Below, piece by piece: positions 3,814 to 64,000 of a stretch of DNA of 64,000 bases (positions are counted from its first letter, which is position 1; every line of letters begins with the position of its first letter). This stretch comes from Minisyncoccota bacterium (GTDB lineage Bacteria > Patescibacteriota > Minisyncoccia > Phycocordibacterales > UBA9973), in contig JBAYVZ010000001.1 of NCBI GenBank assembly GCA_041674285.1, positions 165,129-229,128 on the forward strand. Direction: 5' to 3'. A program made the position numbers and the translations under genes. The notes below the pieces were generated by a model that searched no databases, had not been told where the DNA came from, and saw nothing but the letters and a program-made list of their open reading frames with translations.

Positions 3814-5196
3814 ATGAACAAAAATGTATCCGCTTCTAAGAAGCTTTGGAAGCTCGGAATGAAAGAGTTTAATACTCAATATTTTGATTATAGTAAAGAG
3901 GGTGATCTGATTATCAAAGAAGGTCACAATATTTACAACGTACGATACCTTGCAGAAAAATTCGGAACATCACTAGAGATACTGATGCCTTTTGTTGTTG
4001 AAGAGAGATTGGAGGACTTCCTAGACCTAGCAGAGAGTATGTCTAAAAAGGTGGGATACAAAGGTAAATTCTTTTACCACTATCCTATGAAAGTGAATCA
4101 GAACAAAGAGGTAGTTATGTCTATCGTGGGCGAAGGTGCGCACCTAGAGACTTCATCATTTAATGACCTGTATTTGATAAAGAAGATGCTCGAGCAAGAG
4201 ACCTTCAACCCAAACATCCGTATTCTTTGTTCAGGACCTAAAACAGACAAATACATAAATCTTATCGATGATCTACAGCACAAAGGAATCAAGATATTCC
4301 CACTAATCGAGGGCCCAAATGAGCTCAAATTCCTACAGCACTCAAAATATGATGTGGGTATTCGCCTAGATATGCCAGTAAAGGCAGATTCGTACTGGAA
4401 CAAGCCGATTGACCGTTTTGGTTTTTCTGCAAAAGAAATACTAGAGATGGGTAGCTTCAAAAATCTAAAGATTGTTCACTACCACATTGGCTCACAAATT
4501 GAAAAATTGTCTGACGTCCTGGGTCCTATAAAGTATGCATTGGATGTGTACTTTAAACTCAAGGAAAAGAATCCGTCTCTAGATACATTAGATATCGGTG
4601 GAGGTATGCCTATTCCATATACTCGCACAAAGAGTTATCCTATAGACAAGCTAATGGAAAAGGTTTTCGAATTGATCAAGAAAGAATCTGAAAAGCATGA
4701 GATGCCTCAGCCAAACCTAGTATGTGAATGGGGTCGCTATATAGTAGCTCCTGCACAGATCACAGTTTTCAAGATTATCGATACAAAAACAATAAACCAC
4801 AAAAAAGCTGCTGCAAAGAAATGGTATGTGATAGACGGTAGCTTTATGAATGACCTCCTAGACACTTGGGCAATAGGTCAAAAATGGTCTATAGCTCCAG
4901 TCTCAGCCAAGAGAGATCATAAATTAAACGACGTATGGCTAGCAGGATCGTCTTGTGATTCCGATGACATATACACTGGGGTAAATGGCACAGTTTCATT
5001 GCCAGATTATGATTCCAATGAAGGTGGAGACCCTATGTACATAGCAGTATTCGATACTGGTGCATACCAGGATCCTCTAGCGGCGCACCATTGTATGCTA
5101 TCCTCACCAGCAAAGATCATAATAGAGAATGGTCACGTAGTAATAGCTCGTAAGAGAGAAACTCCCGAAGATGTAGGTAAAGACTTTGGTTGGTAG
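3814..5196 (+). CDS. PLP-dependent fold-type-III basic-amino-acid decarboxylase (Orn/DAP/Arg decarboxylase family), probably arginine decarboxylase
   Basis: PLP-lysine region (YHYPMKVNQN), HYHIGSQ motif, EWGRYIVAP (the EPGR-like motif), and CDSDD plus DTGAYQD C-terminal motifs. An arginase/agmatinase-family gene lies elsewhere in the window. Confidence 0.6.
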   Translation: MNKNVSASKKLWKLGMKEFNTQYFDYSKEGDLIIKEGHNIYNVRYLAEKFGTSLEILMPFVVEERLEDFLDLAESMSKKVGYKGKFFYHYPMKVNQNKEVVMSIVGEGAHLETSSFNDLYLIKKMLEQETFNPNIRILCSGPKTDKYINLIDDLQHKGIKIFPLIEGPNELKFLQHSKYDVGIRLDMPVKADSYWNKPIDRFGFSAKEILEMGSFKNLKIVHYHIGSQIEKLSDVLGPIKYALDVYFKLKEKNPSLDTLDIGGGMPIPYTRTKSYPIDKLMEKVFELIKKESEKHEMPQPNLVCEWGRYIVAPAQITVFKIIDTKTINHKKAAAKKWYVIDGSFMNDLLDTWAIGQKWSIAPVSAKRDHKLNDVWLAGSSCDSDDIYTGVNGTVSLPDYDSNEGGDPMYIAVFDTGAYQDPLAAHHCMLSSPAKIIIENGHVVIARKRETPEDVGKDFGW

Positions 5197-22110: not shown

Positions 22111-22227
22111 CCCGTTAGAGATAGGAAATGTTTACATTTCCGTATATTTTTAATTTTAGTAAATAATACGACTTATGTTTATATAATACTTAATGTTAGA
22201 GATAAAACAAACAAATCTCTAACGGGA
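22111..22227 (+). repeat. TIR-bounded intergenic element, subtype 1 (copy C), 117 bp
   Basis: CCCGTTAGAGATAGGAAATGTTTACATTTCC ... ATCTCTAACGGGA. The left terminus directly abuts the gltX start codon. Internal hairpin GGAAATG-ttta-CATTTCC. Confidence 0.85.
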
Positions 22228-22240
22228 GACCTATATTTTA

Positions 22241-23368
22241 TTAAGCTTCATGAGCAAGTGCCATATCTATGGCTTCTTGGGCTATCTTTGTAGCTGCGTC
22301 TGGAGTAGAGAAAGCTTTCGCTTTTTCTTTCATCTGATTCAATCTATCTGTATTATTCATAAGTTTATCGATCTCTGCTACGAGTACATGTGGTGTCAGA
22401 TTTGCCTCTTCTAGTACATCGCAAGCTCCAGCTCGAGCATAAGAGAATGCATTCTTTCTCTGATGGTCACCATTTGAATTTGTGATCGGTATGATGATAG
22501 ATGGCACACCCCAAGCTGCAATCTCGAATATCGTAGACCCTGCACGAGAGATGACTAGTGTCGCTGCGCCTGCAGCCATCTTTGTAGTTAGATTGTTTAG
22601 GTACGGATATGCCAAGTAACGAGCCTTGTATGGATTCTTTTCTAGCATCAAATCAGAGCGCAATTTTACTTCTTCAAAATTCTTTGGACCAGCCTGATGT
22701 ATAATCTGATATTTTGATATTAGATCAGGTAGCGCCTCGATCAATGTACTGTTTATGATTTCTGCACCCTGTGACCCGCCTACTACAAATATAGTCTGCA
22801 CATCACGACTGAGTTTAAAGAATTCAAACATGCCAGTAGTAGCGGCAGCAGATACTTCGCGTCGAACAGGCTGACCTACCCATGCAGTTTTATCTTTTGG
22901 AAACTGCTCACCTGCTTCTGGGTATGACACAGCGATACGTTTTGCAAATTTTGAAGCCCAAAGATTCAATCGTCCAGCACTAGAATCTGATTCATGGACG
23001 ATCACTGGTATACGCAAAATCTTTGCTGCGAATACAGCTGGGAATGAGGCATATCCGCCCTTTGATATAACTACATCAGGATATATAGAGAAGAGTCTAA
23101 TCAAGCCATAGAATAGGCCGGTAGCAGTTTTGAATAAATCCAAGAAATTTAAGATAGATGAGTATGTGCGCATCTTGCCTGCAGGCACACCCACAAATTC
23201 GATATTATTCTCAAAAAGCATCCTTTTATCATAAGGTGCATCTGACATATAATATAACTTTACATCTAGTATTTTCTCTTTATCTACAAGCTTATTTATC
23301 TCTTCGGCAATAGCGATAAGTGGATAAAAATGACCACCAGTACCACCTCCTGTCAACAATATTTTCAT
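22241..23368 (-). CDS. murG: UDP-N-acetylglucosamine--N-acetylmuramyl-(pentapeptide) pyrophosphoryl-undecaprenol N-acetylglucosamine transferase MurG
   Basis: MKILLTGGGTGGHFYPLIAIA N-terminus and GT28 C-terminal domain. Start placed at the internal Met rather than the track start at 23563. Confidence 0.85.
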   Translation of the reverse strand: MKILLTGGGTGGHFYPLIAIAEEINKLVDKEKILDVKLYYMSDAPYDKRMLFENNIEFVGVPAGKMRTYSSILNFLDLFKTATGLFYGLIRLFSIYPDVVISKGGYASFPAVFAAKILRIPVIVHESDSSAGRLNLWASKFAKRIAVSYPEAGEQFPKDKTAWVGQPVRREVSAAATTGMFEFFKLSRDVQTIFVVGGSQGAEIINSTLIEALPDLISKYQIIHQAGPKNFEEVKLRSDLMLEKNPYKARYLAYPYLNNLTTKMAAGAATLVISRAGSTIFEIAAWGVPSIIIPITNSNGDHQRKNAFSYARAGACDVLEEANLTPHVLVAEIDKLMNNTDRLNQMKEKAKAFSTPDAATKIAQEAIDMALAHEA

Positions 23369-23417
23369 AGTATTAGTATAGCTTATTTTTAAAAATTTGA
23401 AAAATAACAAACAAAAA

Positions 23418-23450
23418 CTGCTTAAAGCAATTTTTGTTTGCTTTAAGCAG
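23418..23450. terminator. Hairpin terminator between the 166-aa gene and murG
   Basis: CTGCTTAAAGCAA-tttttgttt-GCTTTAAGCAG. Confidence 0.55.
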
Positions 23451-23951
23451 TTAATAATCTTTCCCAAAGTCAGGTTGTGTACCGTATGTCGGATAGGAAT
23501 TATGTCTTTCCTGTTCTTCCCTACTACTATAGAGTAAATCTCTAAATTCATCGGCTTGTTCACTACGCCTTACTTTGTGTTCTTCTTCCATTTTAAATTT
23601 CTCTTCCTTCATCCACAAAAGTGCACCTTTGAGTAATTTATACTCTGAATGTTTTTTGTTCTCAAAAAAATCTCGATGGATCATATACTCATTTAGATTT
23701 TCAGCAGAAACAAATGCTTTCTGGAAAAGTTTAAAATTCCTCCAACAATAAATCATAGCCAGAATCTTTACAGTAATAACTTCGGGGATAGGGCAATTAT
23801 TTTCTTTTAAATAATTGAACACAATATCTTTGTTATGTTCTATGGGGTAGATACTCATCCTACCGTACATATCATCCATAACAACTTTATTCAAATGTTC
23901 AACATTAAAATCAAATCTACCTATTTTTAAAATTTGGTTTTCATTTTTCAT
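23451..23951 (-). CDS. Hypothetical protein (166 aa) inserted in the dcw cluster
   Basis: ORF only. Basic/acidic C-terminal tail. No motif recognised. Confidence 0.4.
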   Translation of the reverse strand: MKNENQILKIGRFDFNVEHLNKVVMDDMYGRMSIYPIEHNKDIVFNYLKENNCPIPEVITVKILAMIYCWRNFKLFQKAFVSAENLNEYMIHRDFFENKKHSEYKLLKGALLWMKEEKFKMEEEHKVRRSEQADEFRDLLYSSREEQERHNSYPTYGTQPDFGKDY

Positions 23952-24012
23952 GTCTTTATATTTTTAAGACATAGTACAATTTACACCCCCGATTAGTCAA
24001 TTATTTAAATAT

Positions 24013-24044
24013 TTACACTCCAAACCTTAAGGTTTAGGGTGTAA
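24013..24044. promoter_or_regulatory. Imperfect 32-bp palindrome TTACACTCCAAACC-TTAAGG-TTTAGGGTGTAA (copy 1 of 2)
   Basis: Inverted-repeat symmetry centred on TTAAGG. A related copy lies at 24568-24604. The two flank the wHTH/Cas2-like gene. Confidence 0.45.
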
Positions 24045-24050
24045 TTTTGA

Positions 24051-24548
24051 TTACTTGATTGTATACCCTTTTGCTAGTTTAAAAGTTTTAAAATTCTCAT
24101 TCAATTTTATCTCTTTTACGTATTTCTTAAAATCCTCTGGAAGTGGAGATGGACCCACCCATACACTACGTTGGATCATAATAAAATGAAATTGTCTCAG
24201 TTCCCTTCGGAACCAATTCCTAGCTGAAGTTTGATTGTCTGGTATGTCATAAATGATCAACAAGTCTTTAGGATCTTTATCTGTTTTTTCTGTTGAAAAT
24301 TTTTTAAAAACAATCTTTTCTTTTGATTTTAAAAACTTCTCGCCCAGCTGTGTTATAGAATATACACCGTTTAACTCTTTTATGTATCCTTTACTCTTTA
24401 GGCCAGAGCACCTACTAGCCAGAGTTTGATGTTTATAATATTTAAAATCAGGTAAACCCAAAAACCCTGTCTTGACGCCTTTATAACTAACAAATTTTTT
24501 GTTTTTATTTTTACTTAAATATTTTAGAATTTCTCTCTCTATACTCAT
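24051..24548 (-). CDS. Winged-helix DNA-binding domain fused to a Cas2-like / PaaX-C-like domain (putative regulator); tentative
   Basis: The N-terminal ~70 aa are HTH-like (SYKGVKTGFLGLPDFKYY...GYIKELNGVYSITQLGEKFL). The C-terminal ~90 aa carry a Cas2-like beta-alpha-beta pattern (LLIIYDIPD ... ARNWFRRELRQFHF ... IQRSVWVG). Assignment is from pattern only. Confidence 0.4.
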   Translation of the reverse strand: MSIEREILKYLSKNKNKKFVSYKGVKTGFLGLPDFKYYKHQTLASRCSGLKSKGYIKELNGVYSITQLGEKFLKSKEKIVFKKFSTEKTDKDPKDLLIIYDIPDNQTSARNWFRRELRQFHFIMIQRSVWVGPSPLPEDFKKYVKEIKLNENFKTFKLAKGYTIK

Positions 24549-24567
24549 AATAAAATTTTAGCACACT

Positions 24568-24604
24568 TTACATTTCAATCCGTAAGGTTTCAGGTGTAAA
24601 TCGA
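24568..24604. promoter_or_regulatory. Imperfect palindrome TTTACATTTCAATCC-GTAAGG-TTTCAGGTGTAAA (copy 2 of 2)
   Basis: About 30/38 identity to copy 1. It lies between the ftsW stop and the start of the wHTH/Cas2-like gene. Confidence 0.45.
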
Positions 24605-24627
24605 TAATAGATAGTAATTTTTTAAAA

Positions 24628-25731
24628 TTAAGCAGTTTTCTTTTGTTCTCGTGAGATGTTCAATATGATACCGATGATACCTGTAGCTAGGAGCAGATTC
24701 GTACCACCATGAGATACAAATTCTAACGGCACCCCCGTGAGCGGGAATACTCCGATGATAGATGCGATATTCATAAATGATTGAGCCGTGAACAGAGTGA
24801 TGATACCGATAGTAAATATCTTACTGAATGAGTCTGGCGAATAATATGCTATCTTGTACCCTCGCAAAGCAAAAGCTACAAAAAGGAATATGAGTAAAGT
24901 CGAACCGATGAATCCTACTTCTTCACCGATGACTGCGAAAATTGAGTCCCCTTGTGGTTCTGGAAGGTAATTGAATTTCTGTATACTCTGACCTAGTCCT
25001 CTACCAGCCACACCACCCGATCCCAGGGCGATCAGAGACTGCTGGAGCTGATAGGATGATCCTGATGGATCATATGATGGGTCCATAAAAGTTTTTACAC
25101 GCTCGAGAAGATATGGCTTTGTCATGACTAGTCCACCAAAAGCTAGCATCGCCACCATAATCATCATCAGTATATATTTCCATGGCATACCAGACACGAA
25201 TAGCATGACCAATGCGGTCGCAGACATGAGGATCAGACTCTTTGTATCAGGCTGATTGATCAGGATAGTAGCGATCAGCCCGAGTAGTACCACTAGTGGC
25301 AGCACGCTCCACCTCCAATCAGAAACCTTTGTCTTCACCCAAGACAGCCAAGCAGCAAAATACAGAACAAAAGCAATCTTAAGAAATTCCACAGGCTGGA
25401 AAGACAATCCAAATACATTGATCCACCTCTTTGCACCTCCATGAGAGAATCCGACATGTGGCACAAAGACCAGACAAGTCAGCACGATAGCTCCAATAAA
25501 TATATATAGCGAGTATGCCCTCCAGAATTTATACGGAATCTTCATCGTAAAAAACATAGCCACCAATCCACCAAGTAGCCCAAAGACAAATTGATTGAAC
25601 ATCACTCCGTAGAATTTCGCTTCATTCTTGGCAAGTATCCCCAGAGATGAAGAGGTAAACATAACAGCCCCTACTACTATGAGAGCCACAACTATACCAA
25701 AAAATACTTTGTCGATGTGTTTTGTTTTCAT
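24628..25731 (-). CDS. ftsW: Peptidoglycan glycosyltransferase FtsW/RodA (SEDS family)
   Basis: About 10 TM helices and SEDS motifs (GSGGVAGRGLGQS, LPEPQGDSIFAVIGEEVGFIG). Confidence 0.85.
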   Translation of the reverse strand: MKTKHIDKVFFGIVVALIVVGAVMFTSSSLGILAKNEAKFYGVMFNQFVFGLLGGLVAMFFTMKIPYKFWRAYSLYIFIGAIVLTCLVFVPHVGFSHGGAKRWINVFGLSFQPVEFLKIAFVLYFAAWLSWVKTKVSDWRWSVLPLVVLLGLIATILINQPDTKSLILMSATALVMLFVSGMPWKYILMMIMVAMLAFGGLVMTKPYLLERVKTFMDPSYDPSGSSYQLQQSLIALGSGGVAGRGLGQSIQKFNYLPEPQGDSIFAVIGEEVGFIGSTLLIFLFVAFALRGYKIAYYSPDSFSKIFTIGIITLFTAQSFMNIASIIGVFPLTGVPLEFVSHGGTNLLLATGIIGIILNISREQKKTA

Positions 25732-25848
25732 CCCGTTAGAGATAGGAAATGTTTACATTTCCGTATATTTTTAATTTCTAGTAAATAATACGACTTTATT
25801 TTTTAAACAACCGTAGTTAGAGATAAAACAAACGCATCTCTAACGGGA
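25732..25848 (+). repeat. TIR-bounded intergenic element, subtype 1 (copy D), 117 bp
   Basis: CCCGTTAGAGATAGGAAATGTTTACATTTCCGTATATTTTTAATTTCTAGTAAATAATACGACTT ... CATCTCTAACGGGA. It abuts the ftsW start codon and is >85% identical to copy C. Confidence 0.85.
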
Positions 25849-25854
25849 TTCATG

Positions 25855-26904
25855 CTAACTCACGATGTAGAGGATTACACCCAAGATAGAAGTAATAATG
25901 CTCACTACCCAGTATCTCATAACAACTTTGTATTTAGACCAACCCATAGCTTCAAAATGATGGTGCAATGGGGCAAATAAGAAAACCTTTTTACCATTTC
26001 TAAATTTACGAGAAAACATCTGAATCAAAACAGACAGAGATGTGATAAATAGAGGAAATGCAATTATAGGTAGCAAGAGTACAGTATCAGTTAGAAAGGC
26101 CAACACCGATATAGTAACAGTCAGACCCATCATGCCAGTCTCCCCCATATAAAAACGAGCCGGCGGAATATTGAACCAGAGAAATACGAGTATTCCTCCG
26201 GTTATCACAGCACAAAATGCTGCTAAATCTATCTGCCCATTAAAGAATGAGATAAAAGTATAAGCGGCAAATATAGATGCCAGAACTCCACCAGCTAGAC
26301 CGTCGACACCATCGATAACACTACCTGACCATACAGCTAACATGACTAGTATGAAAGCTGGAATAAATAAAAATCCTAATTCAACAAATCCATAACTAGG
26401 TATGTAGATAGAGCTGATCCCCAGCTTGCTATAGAACCACCAGCTGATCAGTACTCCGAGAACCAATATGATAGATAATTTTATAAAACGTAAAACCATA
26501 GGATCTCTCCTCCACATACCAGTACCAAAAATCTGTATCAGATCATCTCCCAGTCCGATAATAGAAGCCAATATCAATGTGAACAATGGCAATATTGTCT
26601 GTCCGCGAGATATGAAATACATCTTTTCTGTCCAAGCAGAATTATAAGAAATATTTAAAATAAGAAAAATAAAAATAGTAAAGAGTGCAGACATCCACAC
26701 CACCGTACCCCCGACACGAGGAGTAGACACCTCAGCCACCCCGTCATGAATCTTTTCAAAATCCCCCTTCACTACATTTTCATTGCGAGAAGTACTCTTC
26801 CACATCTTATATTTATAAAAATAATGAGTCAGAATTGGAGTCAGGAAAATACCTGAAATAAAAGAGACTGCTGCTGGTAATAATATTTTTATTGCATTAG
26901 TCAT
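25855..26904 (-). CDS. mraY: Phospho-N-acetylmuramoyl-pentapeptide transferase MraY
   Basis: Polytopic membrane protein with the FYMGETG motif and the LHHHFEAMGW motif characteristic of MraY. Confidence 0.8.
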   Translation of the reverse strand: MTNAIKILLPAAVSFISGIFLTPILTHYFYKYKMWKSTSRNENVVKGDFEKIHDGVAEVSTPRVGGTVVWMSALFTIFIFLILNISYNSAWTEKMYFISRGQTILPLFTLILASIIGLGDDLIQIFGTGMWRRDPMVLRFIKLSIILVLGVLISWWFYSKLGISSIYIPSYGFVELGFLFIPAFILVMLAVWSGSVIDGVDGLAGGVLASIFAAYTFISFFNGQIDLAAFCAVITGGILVFLWFNIPPARFYMGETGMMGLTVTISVLAFLTDTVLLLPIIAFPLFITSLSVLIQMFSRKFRNGKKVFLFAPLHHHFEAMGWSKYKVVMRYWVVSIITSILGVILYIVS

Positions 26905-29583: not shown

Positions 29584-29700
29584 CCCATTAGAGATAGGAA
29601 ATGTTCACATTTCCGTATATTTTTAATTTCTATTAATAATACGACTTAATTTTTTAAAACAATTTACGTTAGACATCTTACAAGCACATCTCTAACGGGA
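29584..29700 (+). repeat. TIR-bounded intergenic element, subtype 1 (copy E), 117 bp
   Basis: CCCATTAGAGATAGGAAATGTTCACATTTCC ... ATCTCTAACGGGA, 40 bp from the aspS start. Its right terminus abuts the stop codon of the 70-aa ORF. Confidence 0.8.
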
Positions 29701-32627: not shown

Positions 32628-32746
32628 CCCGTTAGAGATGTGCTTGTCATATTTCTAGTATTGGGTAACATATAAAGATTAAGTCGTATTATTTACTAAA
32701 AAATTAAAATATACGGTAATGTAAACATTACCTATCTCTAACGGGA
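32628..32746 (-). repeat. TIR-bounded intergenic element, subtype 1 (copy H), 119 bp, inverted relative to copies C/D/E
   Basis: CCCGTTAGAGATGTGCTTGT ... GGTAATGTAAACATTACCTATCTCTAACGGG-ATG. Its right terminus abuts the recR start codon. Hairpin variant GGTAATG-taaa-CATTACC. Confidence 0.85.
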
Positions 32747-44098: not shown

Positions 44099-44214
44099 CC
44101 CGTTAGAGATGTGTTTGTTATTTTTTTAATCTTGGAACAATAAAAGAAAAAGTCGTATTTTTAATATAAATTAATCAGATACGGAAATGTAAACATTTCC
44201 TATCTCTAACGGGA
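44099..44214 (-). repeat. TIR-bounded intergenic element, subtype 1 (copy I), 116 bp, inverted
   Basis: CCCGTTAGAGATGTGTTTGT ... ACGGAAATGTAAACATTTCCTATCTCTAACGGG-ATG. Its right terminus abuts the arginase-family start codon. Confidence 0.85.
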
Positions 44215-56527: not shown

Positions 56528-59500
56528 TTATTTTACGTTATTGATAAAGTTGAATGATTCGTTGAAGTTTTTAAAGATAACATCAACGATAGACTCACTA
56601 GGTCTCGGTGTTATTATAGTACGAATTGGAAGTTTTTTCACATTCTTTGCGTCATCAGATGAAGCTACTTGGAATCGATATACCGTACCTGGCTTGAGTG
56701 TAGTTAGGATAACCACATGATTCAGAGTAAGCTCTGTATCTTCTTGCTTGTTTGCCAATGGCTTATCAGGAGATCCAGATCCTTCCTCGTAGTAAACCAC
56801 AGAGGTAGATGGTTCATCAGTCTTCCATGAGATGATAGTCTGAGTTTTGTCATTTCTACCTACAACCAGTGAACTATCTACTTTTACTTTTGATATTGCA
56901 GGAGCTGTCACATCTGTAGAAGTTTTGATTGTAATTGTTCCCGCTGATTCTACCGTATTTCCTATATCATTTAATCCTGACACATCTACTTGATACAAGG
57001 TTCCAGGATCAAGATTTTCTATTTTTACAACGTGACCAGTACTCCTAATATCATCTGTTCTCTTGTTTACTTTGCCGGTCTTTAGATTCTTGTATTCTAC
57101 GATTGATGAAGTTTTACTATTTGTACTCCACGACACAGTGAATGAATTCTTTGTAAGATTTGTAACAGAAACTTTTATCTTTGAAGCTTTGGTTATAAAG
57201 GTAAAATCTTTTGATTTACCTACGATCTGAGGCAATGAGAATGCTTTTGCCGAGAAGTGGTATTTTGTATTTGATTTTAGATTTATAAGTTTTACTTTGT
57301 GTATAGTTACCTTGCTTGTAGTATCTGATACTTCACCATTATAAGGATTATCTTTTGTCTCATCATAGTAATCATCTGTAGCATAACCAACGAGAGAGAA
57401 TCCTTTGATGTTTGTCTTGTATGTAATCACAGCACTATCCTCAGTAATATCAGTGACCACTGGAGCCTCTACGAATGGAGGCACGAGAGATGGCAATATT
57501 GATTCAATGCTTGATTCTATTTCATTTTGGAATTGCTCGACATTTTCAATCTTGTTTATCTCATCTAGATTCTCACTAAAGAATTTTGTCTTGAAAACTT
57601 GCTTGTCTCCTATAGATACAGCTACATTGCTATATTTATCTACAACTGCTATTCCATAGTAGTAATCTGTACCCACAGTCAAGCCTCCTATATTTATCTT
57701 GTGGTTTGTAGACCATTTAAAGTTACCTTCTGTCTTGCCGAAATCTTTTGTCTTGCCATAATCTACTCCAGCTACAGTCAATCGATCTGTATCAAATGTC
57801 ACTGTTGCTCCGAAAGCTGTAACATCAGATACTTTTATATTTGAAATCACTGGTAGTGTCGTTATCCCAAACATATTATTCTTCTTTAATTCTGCAAGCT
57901 CCTTCTGTAGAGCTTCGTACACAGATAGAGCTACTCCAGATGAACCGCCACCACCACCACTATTTACTACTATGACCTGACCTGCAGCCACAGTCTCTAC
58001 TTCTTGTTCTGGTGATATAGCGATATTCCCTGACCCATCCTCTGATACAACGACATAATAGTATGTAGTAGTAGCAGTGAGTGAATCCATCAGCGCCCAG
58101 TGAGTAGCTTGCTTGTCAGAATCATCACGTAGAGCACTAGATGAATATCCATTGTTAGGATCACCTAAAATATCTTCTGTGACCAAACCTTCCTCATTTT
58201 TTTCAAACGTATTTGTACTCCAATACACTTGAGTATTTGATCGCTCGTTAGTATTCCAACTCACCATCACAACATCACTCTTTATCACAGGAGTAGATAT
58301 ATTTGATATTGTTGGTGGAGCACTATCTTCTACTGTTCTTGTTGCTGTACCTGTTACTGTGCCACCTATACCTTCCGTATAGGTAACCGTATATATCACG
58401 TCACCACCAGAAACTCCGGCAGTAGAACTATTACTACTGATTGTATACGTAACTCCAGGGACATCAGTAACTGGTTGTCCATTTGTAATAAGATTTATTG
58501 ATGTAATACCATCAGCTGAATAAGTAGCACTCCAGTCGTCTGTAGGATAAGGCGCTCCTGGTGCCAAAACTAGAGGATTACTACTAAAAGTAATTGCGGG
58601 TAAGGGCTCATCAATCAAACCGAATCCGACTGCCATAGATACATCTCCTTTGATTTGTGAGAATGTATACCCAGCCTGATAATCATCTACATTCAAAGGT
58701 GTAATTGTGTCTCCGATAGTCACAGATAGAGTCTTTACTTTATGTAGATCTGTATCAGGGACAAATGTGTATGCTGGAGTAGACAGCTTGTCGACGACAA
58801 CATTTCCAGCAGAGATAGTATCTCCATTTGCATCCTTGACTGTTCCTGGACCTGTAATAGTAAGAGTTAGGTTATATGTATCTGCATAATCAACATTAAC
58901 TATTCTTTCTGCAGTAGAAATCCCTCCTGCACTTATCGCTTTGTAAATTATTTTATATTCCCCTACAGCATTAACATTTACCGCACCACTCTTGCTCCAT
59001 AGACATCCATTTTGCGGTGCAGTTGTAGTATCACCCTCTGTACAAGACACATCATTATCTTCTACAGCAGTTATGCCGTCATCGATATATTCTTCTCCGA
59101 GTACTACATCAACTTCAGGATCACCTAACAATGTGATCTCTGGTGCAGTTGTATCTAGAGTAGCAGTGAAAGAAACATTTATAGTTTTATTTTCTTGTAT
59201 ATCTGTGAATGATACAGAAGTAGAATTATTTGCACGAGTCTCACCCCCTACAGTCAGTAAATCTATACTGTATCCATCAGCTGGTGTGATTGTAAATGTA
59301 GCATCATTACCTGTAGTAGCACTTGCTCTTGGTATCGTATACACACTGTTACTTGCTGAGTAACCTGTTAGAGCTTGAGTAGTAGCATCTGCATCAACTG
59401 CTCCATTCGCACCCACAGTCACTGTGACTGTATATGATGCTGCTAGAACGACATTAACTGTTCTACTTTTTATGGTAGACAATCCACCTGAATCTTTTGC

Positions 59501-62500
59501 TGTATATGTATATGTATAGGTTCCTAGTGCATTTGTATTTACAGTTCCAGTTCTTATATATTCACAATCAGTAATAGTTGTACTGAAAGATGACACTGAA
59601 GTACAAGCAGACCCACTATCTTCAATAGTAGCACCAGCATCAGTATATGAACCACTATTAAGAACAACCTCAATACTGTCAGAATCAGTAAGAACTATAG
59701 TAGGAGCGACATTTTCAATATCATCATTGTATATAGTATAAATGAATGTTGATGTTCCTAGTGTCGCATTGTTTGGGTTAGCCAGTGTGACAATAATTGT
59801 TTCCCCTGCCTCAGAATTATCATCATTAGTAACAGTAAACGGAATACTTGCATTTGTAGATCCTGGAGCTATGGTCAAAGTTCCAGTTGTATTTGTCGCA
59901 GTAAAATCAGAATTCAATGTTGCTGTACCATCTGTGGTGATAGTATATGCGACAGTCACACTCTTACCAGAAGCAGGTAGAAGAGATACGTCTATAGTTT
60001 TCGCTGCTGGTGTATCACTTTCGAGACTACTATCATTATCTGTTGTAAATCCGATAGCAGGAGCATCATCATCATCATTTATGGTATATGTATATATTTT
60101 ATTTGTGAGAGCTACAGTCGCCATACCAGAAGACACAGCACTCAGAGTGACGACGATAGTCTCAGGATCTTCGTCTGTAGTATCTGCAGTTATTGGTATT
60201 TGAATAAGAGCAGAATCAGTATTTGCAGGGATAGTCACAGATAGCGGATTTGGAGCAGTGTAATCTGTACCTGCTGTTGCTCCACCTGTTAGAGTATATG
60301 TGACTACTGTATCTGTACCAGATTGAGCTGATATATATACTGGGATATCTATTGTACCAGCTGTATCTTCTGTGTCACTTAATGAAAGTGCATTTTCGTC
60401 AAATGAGACAGTGGCACTGATATCCGCGTCGATAGTATATGTATATGTATTTGTCGGTGATGAAGCACTGGCAATCTCCACATTGTCAGGAGACAATACC
60501 AAAACTACTGTTCTTGAACCCAATACATTTGGATTGTTGTTTACACCTAGTGTGATAACCCCAGTTGTTTGCCCTGCTGGTATTGTGATAAATCCAGCAC
60601 CCAGGTCATAGTCTTCTACTGGTGCAGTAGAGCTCGCATCTGCAGTGTAGTTTACTCTGACATCTTGGTATGAGGCATTTGTAAGTGTGACTGGGATACC
60701 AACTGTATCTACAGTCTCTGCACCATTACTAAATAGAGGTGAATCAAAGGTTATAGCAGGGATAGTATCGTCATTTGTAATTGTATGAGTATATACATCA
60801 TCAACTCCAGTAGTCAAAGTTGCGCCTGGTGCACTATTTATAGTCAATATTACGGTCTCATTTTGTTCATACCCGGTATCTCCAGTTATGTTCAGAGTTA
60901 TATCTGTATACAATTCACCCGCTGGTATAACAGCAGATCCTGACAATGCAGTAAAGTCTGTACCGCTAGTAGCTGTACCAGTTACTGTATATGTAGCTGT
61001 GATAGGACTACTAGATGCGCCAACAATAGAAAGTCTTATTGGAATTACTCCACTATTTGCATTTTCATTCACACTTGAATTATCAGTTACAGTAAATCCT
61101 ATAGCTGGAGCATCATCATTGTCTGTGATTGTATTTGTATATGATGCATTCCCGCCTGATGTAATCTTTGTAGGATCAACATTTAAGATAATAGTCTCTC
61201 CATTGTCTTGGATTGCGTCATCTACAACACTGATAGCAAGTGGTGCTACTAGAGTAGTATCTCCCGCTTCAAATGTCACAGTTCCAGCTGATGAGCCAGT
61301 CTGAGCCATTGTATAGTCGGTAGTAGCATCAGCTGAACCAGTGACAGTGTATGGGAATGATATATCGAGAGGATATGCACGTGATAGTGTCATACCTACA
61401 TTCACCGGCACTACTGGCGTAGCCTCAGCACTTGTACCCGTTAGAGAATCAAATGTGACAGTAGGAGCAGTGAGTACGAGTGGGTCCAATGTTCCATCTT
61501 CAGAATAATCACTCTGACTAGATAGCGGACCGGAGTCAGCAGCCTGATTGTCATGAACTAGGACTCTGATTCCAGTGTTTGAATAAGATCCACCAGCAAG
61601 GTCAACATCATTCTGAGCATTCCATGTGATAGAACCAGAGTAACCACTTGTAGCTATTGAACTATCGACGACTGAGACTAGGCTGTCAGTAGCCATGATC
61701 CATACAGGAGTACCAGTAAATATCGTACTGTTTTGTCTAGTTACCCTTGGTGATGTAGGCCATGTAGCACGTACAATACCAGTGAGAGAATTACTATTCT
61801 TTCCAGTATACTGAAGAACTTCATTGTTTAATTGAATATACCCTCCGCCAGATTTGAATCGAGATACATCAGATACAGGCAGATTACCACTAGACAATGC
61901 TCCAGTCGTCACTACCCCTATATTGTACATAACAACAGCTTCATACTCCGGACTATTTTTTGTACTAGCAGAAGGGTCTGTTAATAGGTAAGATACACTG
62001 ACAACTTTTGTTGTTGTGTTCTGGCTCGGAACAACATTTTCAACTTTTGGAGCAGTAGCTACGCTACCTCCTCCACCTTCACCATAGTCCTGAACACCAT
62101 TGGGTTTAACGTGAGTTTGAACATTCACCGAGATATTACTTCCACTGACCACAGAAAGCTTGTATTTGTAATGTTTTGTAGTATCTAGACCAACATCAAG
62201 GAAATGATAATTACCATTATTATCAGTAGACAAGCCACCTGAAGTATCGACAACAGAATATGATTCTTCGTACGTTATGTTGTCCGAAGATGAAGCTCTT
62301 TGCAGTTTATATGCACCAACTTCATTTGAATCAGCCCAACCGATATACATCGCATAGTAAGAAGTAGCGACATTTGATACGTCTTGGATAGTGAGTGACC
62401 CTGAGGTTACAGGTGCTGGAGTAGATATCAAAACGGGACCAGTCACATTACCATAGGAATCCCTAAATTCATAGTTCAAATCTTTAGCCTCAAAACCAGC

Positions 62501-64000
62501 ATCAAAACCCCAAGATGCAGTAGTATCTCCAGTTATAGACGTCCATGATCCTGTAGTCTGTGGTGTATTTGAAGTATGGTCAGATATCCTATATTCAACA
62601 GTAGATATATCTACAGGCATCGGAATAGTGACAATAGCATCTGAACCACCGGCTGTTCCCGCCTCTACTGTTACAGTAGCGGATGGGGCTTTTTGATCAA
62701 AATTAAATGATGAAGATTCAACATAGTGCACCATTTCACCAGTAGCTCCGTCGTCTGCCAGTAGACGTATTGTCATCGCACTATTTTCCATACCAGATGC
62801 ATCAGTTCTTGCATCCCATACGATACTCTTGTCTGCTGGAGGTGTATCATTTAGACTTTTTGCCTGATATCCATAATCCCCAGATACACTAGGTGCGTAT
62901 ATGTAAATTTTTGTATTCTGAGAATGTGAAGCTGGAGTTGCTTGATTATCAGTAGAAGTAAGACCACTAATTAGATAGTTAACACCCGCACCCCTAGTCA
63001 AACTAAGGACATTACCTGATTTTGTATATTCAATAATTTCATTATCTATAAGAATATATCCTGTGCTTGGAAATAGTGCTCCACTAGACACAGTCATACT
63101 AACAGCAGATGAATTTATTCCACCTGAAGGAACCAATATTCCAGAATCATAGAACAATGAGATACTAAGATTGTCTGACTCGATATCAGTTGCCTTGTAA
63201 CTAAGACTAATAGTGCCATCAGAAGCATGTTGAGACGGCGTAGACAGATTAGAGACTACAGGAGGAGCATTTGTAGAAACAAATGATATATCTGATATGG
63301 TACTAGTATTAGAAGCTCCATCAGTGGACTTTGCTCTTATTTTATAAGTCCTACCGATTTCAAATGGAACACTGGATGTAGAATAAGACCAAGTTGTTGT
63401 CCCAGTAGCTGTATTCCAACTCTCAGTAGTAGATGAGAAATCGGAACCATTATAATAATTACCATTTGATGATCCTCCTACACCGAGATCCTGGATAGAA
63501 ATTTCTACAGTATCCACATTAGACCCTCCTGTGTCAGCAGAAGTTCCAGCCACAGACCTCATGCTGTAAATTTGCTGAGGGGTTGCAGACTGACCAGCAC
63601 TAGTACATCCATTTCCAGGGATAGAACAAAATGCTGTCATAGCCAAAGTCGGAGCATTGACGTCAATCAAAACTGAACCATAACTAGAATACGCCGACTC
63701 ATTCAATGCACGGTCGATGGCTTTTACTCGGAAATACCAAGCACCATTAGCTAGAGTGGATTGATGGGTATAAGAATTTGTACTTGATGTACCATTTCCA
63801 ACATTCTGAGTAAACAAAGAATCGCTTGCCCACTGCACAGAATAAGTAGCCCCCACCATATTAGATTCGGTATCTGTAGAAGCATCCCATGACCATGTCG
63901 GATCACTATCGCTCAGTGGAGTTGATGTAGTTGATGGTGTACCAGGCACAGTAGGCGCAATGCTGTCTACATTTATAAGAGCGCCAGAACAAGCATAATT
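56528..64000 (-). CDS. Giant Ser/Thr-rich surface protein with tandem Calx-beta-like and Fn3/Ig-like domains; N-terminus truncated by the window edge (>2,490 aa)
   Basis: The reading frame stays open to the window end, and the track M at 63949 is a GTG. There are at least 5 repeats with the Calx-beta pattern (D-D-D-A-P-x-I-x-F ... Y-T-V-T-G-T-A-T-x-G-T-D-F/Y-T ... I-P-A-G ... I-T). Fn3-like modules are near the C-terminus. Confidence 0.75.
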   Translation of the reverse strand, partial: NYACSGALINVDSIAPTVPGTPSTTSTPLSDSDPTWSWDASTDTESNMVGATYSVQWASDSLFTQNVGNGTSSTNSYTHQSTLANGAWYFRVKAIDRALNESAYSSYGSVLIDVNAPTLAMTAFCSIPGNGCTSAGQSATPQQIYSMRSVAGTSADTGGSNVDTVEISIQDLGVGGSSNGNYYNGSDFSSTTESWNTATGTTTWSYSTSSVPFEIGRTYKIRAKSTDGASNTSTISDISFVSTNAPPVVSNLSTPSQHASDGTISLSYKATDIESDNLSISLFYDSGILVPSGGINSSAVSMTVSSGALFPSTGYILIDNEIIEYTKSGNVLSLTRGAGVNYLISGLTSTDNQATPASHSQNTKIYIYAPSVSGDYGYQAKSLNDTPPADKSIVWDARTDASGMENSAMTIRLLADDGATGEMVHYVESSSFNFDQKAPSATVTVEAGTAGGSDAIVTIPMPVDISTVEYRISDHTSNTPQTTGSWTSITGDTTASWGFDAGFEAKDLNYEFRDSYGNVTGPVLISTPAPVTSGSLTIQDVSNVATSYYAMYIGWADSNEVGAYKLQRASSSDNITYEESYSVVDTSGGLSTDNNGNYHFLDVGLDTTKHYKYKLSVVSGSNISVNVQTHVKPNGVQDYGEGGGGSVATAPKVENVVPSQNTTTKVVSVSYLLTDPSASTKNSPEYEAVVMYNIGVVTTGALSSGNLPVSDVSRFKSGGGYIQLNNEVLQYTGKNSNSLTGIVRATWPTSPRVTRQNSTIFTGTPVWIMATDSLVSVVDSSIATSGYSGSITWNAQNDVDLAGGSYSNTGIRVLVHDNQAADSGPLSSQSDYSEDGTLDPLVLTAPTVTFDSLTGTSAEATPVVPVNVGMTLSRAYPLDISFPYTVTGSADATTDYTMAQTGSSAGTVTFEAGDTTLVAPLAISVVDDAIQDNGETIILNVDPTKITSGGNASYTNTITDNDDAPAIGFTVTDNSSVNENANSGVIPIRLSIVGASSSPITATYTVTGTATSGTDFTALSGSAVIPAGELYTDITLNITGDTGYEQNETVILTINSAPGATLTTGVDDVYTHTITNDDTIPAITFDSPLFSNGAETVDTVGIPVTLTNASYQDVRVNYTADASSTAPVEDYDLGAGFITIPAGQTTGVITLGVNNNPNVLGSRTVVLVLSPDNVEIASASSPTNTYTYTIDADISATVSFDENALSLSDTEDTAGTIDIPVYISAQSGTDTVVTYTLTGGATAGTDYTAPNPLSVTIPANTDSALIQIPITADTTDEDPETIVVTLSAVSSGMATVALTNKIYTYTINDDDDAPAIGFTTDNDSSLESDTPAAKTIDVSLLPASGKSVTVAYTITTDGTATLNSDFTATNTTGTLTIAPGSTNASIPFTVTNDDNSEAGETIIVTLANPNNATLGTSTFIYTIYNDDIENVAPTIVLTDSDSIEVVLNSGSYTDAGATIEDSGSACTSVSSFSTTITDCEYIRTGTVNTNALGTYTYTYTAKDSGGLSTIKSRTVNVVLAASYTVTVTVGANGAVDADATTQALTGYSASNSVYTIPRASATTGNDATFTITPADGYSIDLLTVGGETRANNSTSVSFTDIQENKTINVSFTATLDTTAPEITLLGDPEVDVVLGEEYIDDGITAVEDNDVSCTEGDTTTAPQNGCLWSKSGAVNVNAVGEYKIIYKAISAGGISTAERIVNVDYADTYNLTLTITGPGTVKDANGDTISAGNVVVDKLSTPAYTFVPDTDLHKVKTLSVTIGDTITPLNVDDYQAGYTFSQIKGDVSMAVGFGLIDEPLPAITFSSNPLVLAPGAPYPTDDWSATYSADGITSINLITNGQPVTDVPGVTYTISSNSSTAGVSGGDVIYTVTYTEGIGGTVTGTATRTVEDSAPPTISNISTPVIKSDVVMVSWNTNERSNTQVYWSTNTFEKNEEGLVTEDILGDPNNGYSSSALRDDSDKQATHWALMDSLTATTTYYYVVVSEDGSGNIAISPEQEVETVAAGQVIVVNSGGGGGSSGVALSVYEALQKELAELKKNNMFGITTLPVISNIKVSDVTAFGATVTFDTDRLTVAGVDYGKTKDFGKTEGNFKWSTNHKINIGGLTVGTDYYYGIAVVDKYSNVAVSIGDKQVFKTKFFSENLDEINKIENVEQFQNEIESSIESILPSLVPPFVEAPVVTDITEDSAVITYKTNIKGFSLVGYATDDYYDETKDNPYNGEVSDTTSKVTIHKVKLINLKSNTKYHFSAKAFSLPQIVGKSKDFTFITKASKIKVSVTNLTKNSFTVSWSTNSKTSSIVEYKNLKTGKVNKRTDDIRSTGHVVKIENLDPGTLYQVDVSGLNDIGNTVESAGTITIKTSTDVTAPAISKVKVDSSLVVGRNDKTQTIISWKTDEPSTSVVYYEEGSGSPDKPLANKQEDTELTLNHVVILTTLKPGTVYRFQVASSDDAKNVKKLPIRTIITPRPSESIVDVIFKNFNESFNFINNVK

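Follow-up and report, generated by a model that had tools for sequence, protein, structure and literature searches.

Between ftsW and murG, in the cell-wall and division (dcw) gene cluster of a Minisyncoccota bacterium (GenBank assembly GCA_041674285.1, contig JBAYVZ010000001.1), lies a small gene, here named X, whose product ends in a Cas2-like domain and which is bracketed by two related palindromes; the question raised by this locus is what such a gene does there. The stretch analysed (the window) is 64,000 nucleotides (nt; 64 kb) long, and all positions are counted from its first letter. The answer that we regard as probable is that X is an autorepressed "mini-PaaX", that is a repressor devoid of an effector domain which, together with its palindromes, makes up a conserved stand-alone unit; that X binds DNA, represses and dimerises is suggested by the position of the palindromes, by the pattern of their symmetry, by their covariation with the protein and by the precedent of PaaX. 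The features of the unit are the following:

24051-24548, minus strand: X, 165 amino acids (aa), a winged helix at the N-terminus and a Cas2/PaaX_M-fold domain at the C-terminus
24567-24600: putative operator O1, an imperfect palindrome of 34 base pairs (bp), minus strand TTTACACCTGAAACCTTACGGATTGAAATGTAAA, covering the -35/spacer region of the predicted X promoter
24555-24563, minus strand: extended -10 element of the predicted X promoter, TGCTAAAAT, whose end lies 6 nt before the X ATG
24011-24044: putative operator O2, likewise palindromic over 34 bp, minus strand ATTACACCCTAAACCTTAAGGTTTGGAGTGTAAA, whose core begins 6 nt past the X stop codon (the gap being 24045-24050)

The proposal of the initial annotation that X joins a winged helix to a Cas2/VapD-like C-terminal domain is borne out both by profile matches and by structure comparison, the domain having the Cas2/VapD/PaaX_M fold. 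Residues 96-158 (window 24075-24263) match Pfam PF20803 PaaX_M with 49.1 bits (cut-off 24, E 6e-13) and, with a lower score, PF09827 CRISPR_Cas2 (33.1 bits, cut-off 23.8), the winged-helix match being weak and located around residues 49-79. An AlphaFold model computed from 30 homologues (predicted local distance difference test score, pLDDT, 75) displays helices at residues 3-13 and 43-53, the latter followed by a beta-hairpin (56-65) and by a domain of the order beta-alpha-beta-beta-alpha-beta, according to which the recognition helix is predicted at about residues 41-53, the wing at 56-65 and the Cas2/PaaX_M-fold domain at 94-160. The best Foldseek match of this model is the PaaX structure 8a39; Cas2 chains and VapD (3ui3, 9kan, 6zn8) are matched as well, and neither the Pfam nor the fold searches detected a transposase or recombinase fold. 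The alignment with the NCBIfam PaaX equivalog TIGR02277 is colinear, X residues 47-149 corresponding to model positions 41-142, with a score of 24.8 bits against a cut-off of 264.55; no match to PaaX_C was found in the Pfam scan, the Cas2-like domain being followed directly by the end of the protein (residue 165). Judged from its sequence and its predicted fold, X appears to correspond to a PaaX-type repressor reduced to its two leading domains, the C-terminal effector domain being absent.

The same searches raise the alternative that X is a genuine Cas2 belonging to a CRISPR-Cas system (clustered regularly interspaced short palindromic repeats and associated proteins) encoded elsewhere in the genome. 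Pfam, NCBIfam and PADLOC Cas2 models all match above their cut-offs and NCBI names homologues "CRISPR-associated endonuclease Cas2"; all of these matches are at the level of the domain, and the name itself is given because TIGR01573 (cas2) scores 26.3, barely past its cut-off of 24.5. The 64-kb window holds no tandem or CRISPR-like array, no cas gene is found among the neighbours with precomputed Pfam hits (the other open reading frames, ORFs, of the window were not systematically scanned for cas genes), housekeeping or orphan genes surround the family members in about 95 loci, and X is fused to a winged helix, scores higher with PaaX_M than with Cas2 and has putative operators of its own. A genuine Cas2 is thus extremely improbable, in agreement with the initial annotation, in which a canonical CRISPR role had already been considered unlikely. 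In all probability the "Cas2" label carried by this family in these candidate-phylum genomes is mistaken, and CRISPR components can be overcounted on account of it.

Searches retrieved 658 homologues of X, about 165 aa long and 40-90% identical to it, whose public names (P0001, P0040, P0057 and P0080 are among the members) range from the Cas2 one to "DNA-binding transcriptional regulator PaaX" and hypothetical protein. In the libraries searched the named homologues belong to Nomurabacteria, Paceibacterota and Parcubacteria, one record being labelled Saccharibacteria; a search of 2.9 million viral contigs, of GenBank phages and of PLSDB plasmids retrieved no relative, and no paper on the short family was found in the literature search. 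In 74 non-redundant proteins (40-100% identity) residues D101, R110, W112, R114, Q126, S128, W130, G132 and P133 are invariant, while among distant members identity is lowest in the helix and the wing (23%) and highest in the Cas2-like domain (61%).

The second component of the unit is the pair of palindromes, which were reported in the initial annotation as related and as bracketing X, and are indeed found on either side of the gene, O1 and O2 agreeing at 82% of the positions over 33 nt. The window holds no operator copy besides these two (none are expected from shuffled sequences), the inner box taken alone occurring at the chance rate; neither O1 nor O2 is followed by a T-run, as had been noted, and an Rfam scan yielded only sub-threshold chance matches. 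To follow these sites among relatives 96 loci (designated L and a number where they have to be told apart) were fetched, of which about 72 non-redundant ones could be tested on each side, with 17 arm positions scored and the threshold for a site set at 11/17. At least 13 of the 17 positions are paired in 50% of the upstream and 47% of the downstream regions, a level reached by 0.1% of shuffled sequences and by 0.5% of 58-nt windows taken elsewhere in these loci. The position is conserved too: in 35/51 scored loci the end of the upstream 34-nt core lies 17-19 nt ahead of the X ATG (18 nt for O1), and the downstream core begins 2-6 nt past the stop codon in 28/51. Additional copies occur in a few loci; L047 carries the operator in tandem, with three copies upstream (397-514) and three downstream (1055-1172) of X at a 43-nt period, and L068 has three copies upstream of X (4778-5023), about 100 nt apart.

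Whether such palindromes act as DNA or as RNA is a matter on which several properties bear. The symmetry is concentrated in a central box (GC/CC, nATn, GC/GG) and in an outer box, which lies 12-16 nt away from the centre; at positions 7-9 about 45% of the sites are mismatched, and the mismatches show no wobble bias (G:T 78, A:C 71, other 155). Moreover, the two sites within a locus are far more alike (mean identity 0.85) than sites of different loci (0.50), the best match of an upstream site being the downstream site of its own locus in 27/40 loci. An alternative explanation is that the palindromes are RNA hairpins, namely terminators lacking a U-tract or processing or stabilising signals, which insulate X from ftsW/murG transcription; both sites do lie at gene boundaries and O2 would form a stable hairpin, though without a U-tract, in the 3' region of X (-14.5 kcal/mol, z -4.9). 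O1, however, folds no better than shuffles (-4.8 kcal/mol, z +0.2), many sites of the family have 3-6 internal mismatches, G:U pairs are not favoured among these, and the sequence shared by the two sites of a genome is not required of hairpins; O1 would in addition lie outside the X mRNA, since it is upstream of the predicted leaderless start described below. Genuine terminators, finally, look different and are present in addition to the palindromes: in L005, L021, L022, L024, L027 and L029 a separate canonical one (A-tract, GC-stem, T-tract) follows rpsG upstream of the palindrome. RNA hairpins are on these grounds quite unlikely, and the terminator reading is rejected on the same evidence. 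The boxed symmetry, the absence of wobble bias, the folding of O1 and the likeness within genomes point to the palindromes being protein-binding sites on double-stranded DNA, and together with the conserved position and with the helix covariation presented below they strongly support the initial suggestion that these sites resemble operators rather than terminators.

The sequence between the upstream palindrome and X is equally regular. In nearly all loci the palindrome is followed by TGnTAnnnT, by 6 nt and by the ATG; the -10 hexamer (TAnnnT) ends 5-10 nt before the ATG in 68/71 loci, the distance being 6 nt in 51; 46 of the 71 have the TGn extension, and a Shine-Dalgarno-like motif before X is found in none of the 71. 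Since the -10 element ends 6 nt before the start codon, the X mRNA bears the signature of a leaderless transcript, made from an extended -10 promoter whose -35/spacer region is covered by the palindrome. The window fits this family layout exactly, with O1 at 18 nt from the ATG, the -10 element followed by 6 nt and O2 at 6 nt past the stop codon.

That X itself is the protein which reads the palindromes is suggested by the observation that the predicted recognition helix covaries across loci with the outer box of the operator, which is TTACA...TGTAA in the window and TTACC...GGTAA in most relatives:

helix QTLANRCS: outer box TTACC
helix QTLANKFS: outer box TTACCC
helix QTLASRCSGLKSK (window and L007): outer box TTACA(C/T)
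helix QSLLNGCN (L092): outer box AACTAT
helix ESVRNNFYYL: outer box T(A/C)CATC
helix NSINT..SRLKKK: outer box AGTGAC

The case of L092 is instructive, its X being 79% identical overall, yet only 6/13 in the recognition helix. The family therefore offers dozens of naturally occurring combinations of a recognition helix with its putative operator, which is present twice in each genome, and represents a ready data set for how a winged helix of the presumed PaaX type reads DNA.

These observations can be assembled into a mechanism, in which X would dimerise through its Cas2-fold domain, as PaaX does, and the dimer would bind both 34-bp palindromes around its own gene, the recognition helices reading the outer boxes, which are about 22-24 bp apart, and the conserved central box (GC/CC-nATn-GC/GG) being needed too. 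At O1, which abuts the extended -10 element of the leaderless promoter, bound X would for this reason block RNA polymerase and so repress its own synthesis. O2 may be a second site for X which strengthens repression by looping over about 555 bp; alternatively it could act as a roadblock to read-through, as an insulator, or by influencing the next promoter, the -35 element of which is 10 nt downstream of the end of O2. The gene which follows, here named Y, would be an independent orphan, residing in a permissive and often rewritten slot beside the module.

The independence of Y has to be argued, given that X and Y had been regarded as a two-gene insertion into the dcw cluster. The genes of this region are transcribed from the minus strand in the order scpA, scpB, mraY, ftsW, X, Y, murG, gltX, and the features surrounding the X unit are the following:

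25855-26904, minus strand: mraY, from the ORF list
24628-25731, minus strand: ftsW, the upstream neighbour, from the ORF list; its orthologues in L092 and L095, 94-98% identical, match Pfam FTSW_RODA_SPOVE
23971-24000, minus strand: promoter-like site of Y (TTGACT, 18 nt, TACTAT)
23451-23951, minus strand: Y, a 166-aa orphan protein in the variable slot downstream of X
23406-23452, minus strand: canonical intrinsic terminator after Y, a 15-bp stem followed by a T-run (RNA fold -20.2 kcal/mol, z -4.4)
23375-23403, minus strand: promoter-like site of murG (TTTTCA, 17 nt, TATACT), the -10 element ending 6 nt before the ATG at 23368
22241-23368, minus strand: murG, the downstream neighbour, whose orthologues in L093, L094 and L096 match Pfam Glyco_transf_28

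The murG reading frame is listed from 23563, the true start being the ATG at 23368 (MKILLTGGGTGGHF), so that Y and murG do not overlap. The -10 element of murG lies at the same 6-nt distance from the ATG as that of X, and because of this shared spacing leaderless starts may perhaps be common in the genome from which the window derives.

Y has no recognisable motif, as had been observed from the sequence, and no match in Pfam, NCBIfam, PADLOC or PHROGs. Only four homologues were retrieved from a library of 5.8 billion proteins, a profile search over 1.84 billion representatives returned its own cluster only, and the AlphaFold model (pLDDT 48) is too low for use; the fold check proposed in the initial annotation for a possible toxin-antitoxin relationship of Y therefore gave no usable structure. 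Y is 78-82% identical between genomes in which ftsW is 94-98% identical, which implies that it evolves fast.

A comparison of the ftsW-murG interval in relatives, proposed at the same time as a way to establish the insertion, shows that palindrome-X-palindrome does vary as a unit, and that X and Y vary separately. L092 and L094 are contigs of one sample which share a 28-nt palindrome at their ends (the 3' end of L092, the 5' end of L094), and joined they read ftsW-X-Y-murG as in the window; X and Y are truly adjacent there, because it was inside the operator that the assembler broke, perfect palindromes being apt to break metagenome assemblies at this locus. L007, whose X is 90% identical, carries an unrelated 118-aa gene where the window has Y, and in L093 (X 75%) nothing stands between X and murG. 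The nearest relatives by housekeeping genes, L095 and L096 (ftsW 98%, mraY 95%, murG 95%, gltX 89%), have ftsW-Y-murG, with neither X nor the palindromes, and L096 keeps the Y promoter (TTGACT, 17 nt, TAGTAT) though X and both palindromes are gone. What is absent from these two loci is a clean unit of about 620 bp, palindromes included, and no target-site duplication is recognisable at the indel; since more distant relatives have X at the same site, the simplest reading is that the unit was lost or relocated in the L095/L096 lineage. Because its promoter persists where X is absent, Y does not seem to need X, and with a promoter-like site and a terminator of its own it is best regarded as an independent gene. 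As each gene occurs without the other and the content of the slot varies, the view that X and Y form one two-gene cassette is not supported by these comparisons.

The same separation bears on a further explanation, according to which X, alone or with Y, is a toxin-antitoxin or addiction module, made of a VapD/Cas2-like RNase toxin with either the winged helix or Y as antitoxin. The fold of X is like that of VapD toxins, the Asp of Cas2 is retained, and toxin-antitoxin loci commonly regulate themselves through operators at their flanks. On the other side, X and Y each occur alone; of 22 distinct loci 11 have nothing in the slot after X, while elsewhere unrelated families occupy it, so that no conserved partner gene exists; X is conserved vertically throughout the lineage at 40-90% identity and was not found on the plasmids, phages or viral contigs searched; and its nearest relative in both structure and sequence is a repressor, PaaX. 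Such a module, which had been put forward in the initial annotation, is accordingly very unlikely.

The distribution of the X unit among genomes adds to this picture. Most homologues of 61-72% identity are found between rpsL-rpsG and fusA, the dcw position being that of one clade; the unit also recurs beside RsmE, upstream of the genes of trigger factor (tig) and of a class II aminoacyl-tRNA synthetase, and at RNase H/ComEC, where it stands either between these two genes or, in reverse orientation, one gene further along. The initial idea of an "insertion" is hence tenable in part: the dcw position belongs to one clade and a clean absence of about 620 bp is possible, whereas elsewhere the module lies mostly between rpsG and fusA and is not a two-gene unit. 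Where the slot between X and the next conserved gene is filled, it holds in 10 loci one to three ORFs of 93-1114 aa belonging to unrelated groups, in whose products no Pfam family was detected and among which BLAST relates only four small groups; L071 is set apart, its interval between X and fusA not being a cargo slot, since rpsL and rpsG are among its ORFs. Variable genes stand between rpsG and X too, as in L001 (5290-5883, a 197-aa Lcl_C protein) and in L003 (5149-5865, a 238-aa protein bearing the C-terminal domain of RNA polymerase alpha), from which it follows that the whole intergenic neighbourhood is permissive. The position of X is stable within clades and its identity follows the clades, broadly in step with the neighbouring genes, which argues for vertical descent with occasional relocation.

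Two further observations concern the intergenic regions of these genomes. The fusA gene of the relatives has its own conserved promoter (TTGCAA, 17 nt, TGTATATT) and a leader in which a hairpin resembling a terminator (AAGAC...GTCTTTTTATTTTT) is conserved and may serve as an attenuator; promoter and leader are found in L008 (2640-2760) as well as in L016, L018, L020-L022, L025, L033 and L037. In the window, an element of 115-118 bp, reported in the initial annotation as a terminal inverted repeat (TIR) element between mraY and ftsW, is present in five copies (22111-22226, 25732-25847, 29584-29699, 32628-32745 and 44099-44213), bounded by perfect inverted repeats of 12 bp (CCCGTTAGAGAT...ATCTCTAACGGG) and containing the hairpin GGAAATGTAAACATTTCC; it directly abuts the start codon of gltX, of ftsW and of the ORFs at 32746 and 44214, that is in 4/5 copies, and the fifth abuts a start codon too if AspRS begins 39 nt upstream of the listed ATG. 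This element looks like a mobile promoter cassette resembling miniature inverted-repeat transposable elements. The window also contains a minus-strand ORF of 2473 aa (56528-63949).

The occurrence of the X module in several places suggests yet another explanation, in which X and its two palindromes would form a minimal cassette able to move or to be excised, the ends of which are recognised by X, a Cas2-fold nuclease, and the adjacent site of which collects foreign genes. In its favour are the clean absence of about 620 bp from L095/L096 while more distant relatives retain the unit, the presence of the module in at least seven recurrent genomic contexts (with RNase H/ComEC in two positions and orientations), the constant company of X and both sites, the invariance of the Cas2-type Asp D101 and of several polar residues, and the variable orphan genes adjoining the module, bounded in L005 and L042 by a third copy of the operator beyond the cargo genes. 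These points have to be set against the single copy of X in the window and in every locus examined, the clade-conserved position together with an identity falling broadly with that of the neighbour genes, the lack of a recognisable target-site duplication at the indel, of a transposase or recombinase fold in X and of relatives among the viral contigs, phages and plasmids searched, and the variable genes upstream of X as well, which fit a merely permissive intergenic site. Considering both sides, a mobile cassette is unlikely. A composite version is a long shot, namely that the unit is self-regulating and occasionally mobile, a catalytically active Cas2-fold X binding and also cutting or joining DNA at the palindromes and the distal palindrome capturing orphan genes; if it were true, the cassette could relocate between operons, genes such as Y would be captured and exchanged, and a relative of Cas2 would take part in DNA transactions outside CRISPR, in the streamlined genomes of candidate phyla.

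The autorepressor interpretation, which remains the one we favour, has its own difficulties. About 30% of the upstream and about 30% of the downstream regions fall below the 11/17 threshold, which may be due in part to truncated contigs or to misplaced start codons. Targets of X other than its own flanks are absent from the window, the third copy on the cargo side of L005 and L042 being the only one of its kind, which makes the apparent regulon small for a regulator conserved throughout a lineage of class level. In L007 the two sites differ in the outer box, the upstream one (about 48-83) being of the window type (TTACAT) and the downstream one (about 606-640) of the L092 type (AACTAT), which suggests recombination between lineages or a decaying site. 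The invariance of D101, R110, R114, Q126 and S128 suggests that the Cas2-like domain does more than merely dimerise, as the conservation of polar residues exceeds what dimerisation alone needs. Finally, the module is dispensable at the L095/L096 locus, given that the nearest relative is without it there.

If the proposal is correct, X is a small autonomous regulator lodged inside tight essential operons (str, dcw), and the site beside it is one of the few spots in these minimal genomes at which orphan genes turn over.

Several known systems share single traits with this unit. The transposases associated with repetitive extragenic palindromes (RAYTs and REPs, respectively) are single-copy and vertically inherited, and are bracketed by two copies of the REP palindrome that their product recognises; RAYTs are HUH nucleases, and REP palindromes number tens to hundreds of scattered copies, whereas X is devoid of the HUH fold and has only its two flanking palindromes in 64 kb. 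VapD, known from VapD-VapX/VapW pairs, has the same fold as the C-terminal domain of X (3ui3, 9kan, 6zn8), but X has no adjacent antitoxin gene, was not found on mobile replicons and is conserved vertically. With Cas2 X shares the C-terminal ferredoxin-like fold, the motifs YDI...R...Q.SV and the invariant Asp (D101) at the end of the first strand; it differs from Cas2 in being fused to a DNA-binding domain, bracketed by putative sites of its own and placed outside any CRISPR context.

The closest parallel is PaaX of E. coli W, the phenylacetyl-CoA-responsive repressor of the paa catabolic genes, in which, as predicted for X, a winged helix is followed by a Cas2-fold middle domain. According to a review (PMC9493321), E. 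coli PaaX has TGATTC-N27-GAATCA as its site and keeps its own promoter repressed by obstructing RNA polymerase; the X family likewise has a long palindrome with widely spaced outer half-sites, TT(T)ACC-N22-24-GGTAA(A), overlapping its own promoter. The differences are that X ends at 165 aa, without the phenylacetyl-CoA-binding PaaX_C; that no paa genes are near it, the neighbours being housekeeping genes (ftsW/murG, rpsG/fusA, tig, aminoacyl-tRNA synthetase, RsmE, RNase H/ComEC); that it has a second putative operator after the stop codon, a conserved central box and a predicted leaderless promoter; and that the homologues found are almost all from Paceibacteria-type candidate-phylum bacteria. 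Lacking PaaX_C and nearby paa genes, and scoring under the equivalog cut-off, X is not a PaaX orthologue, but it would resemble PaaX in the way it works.

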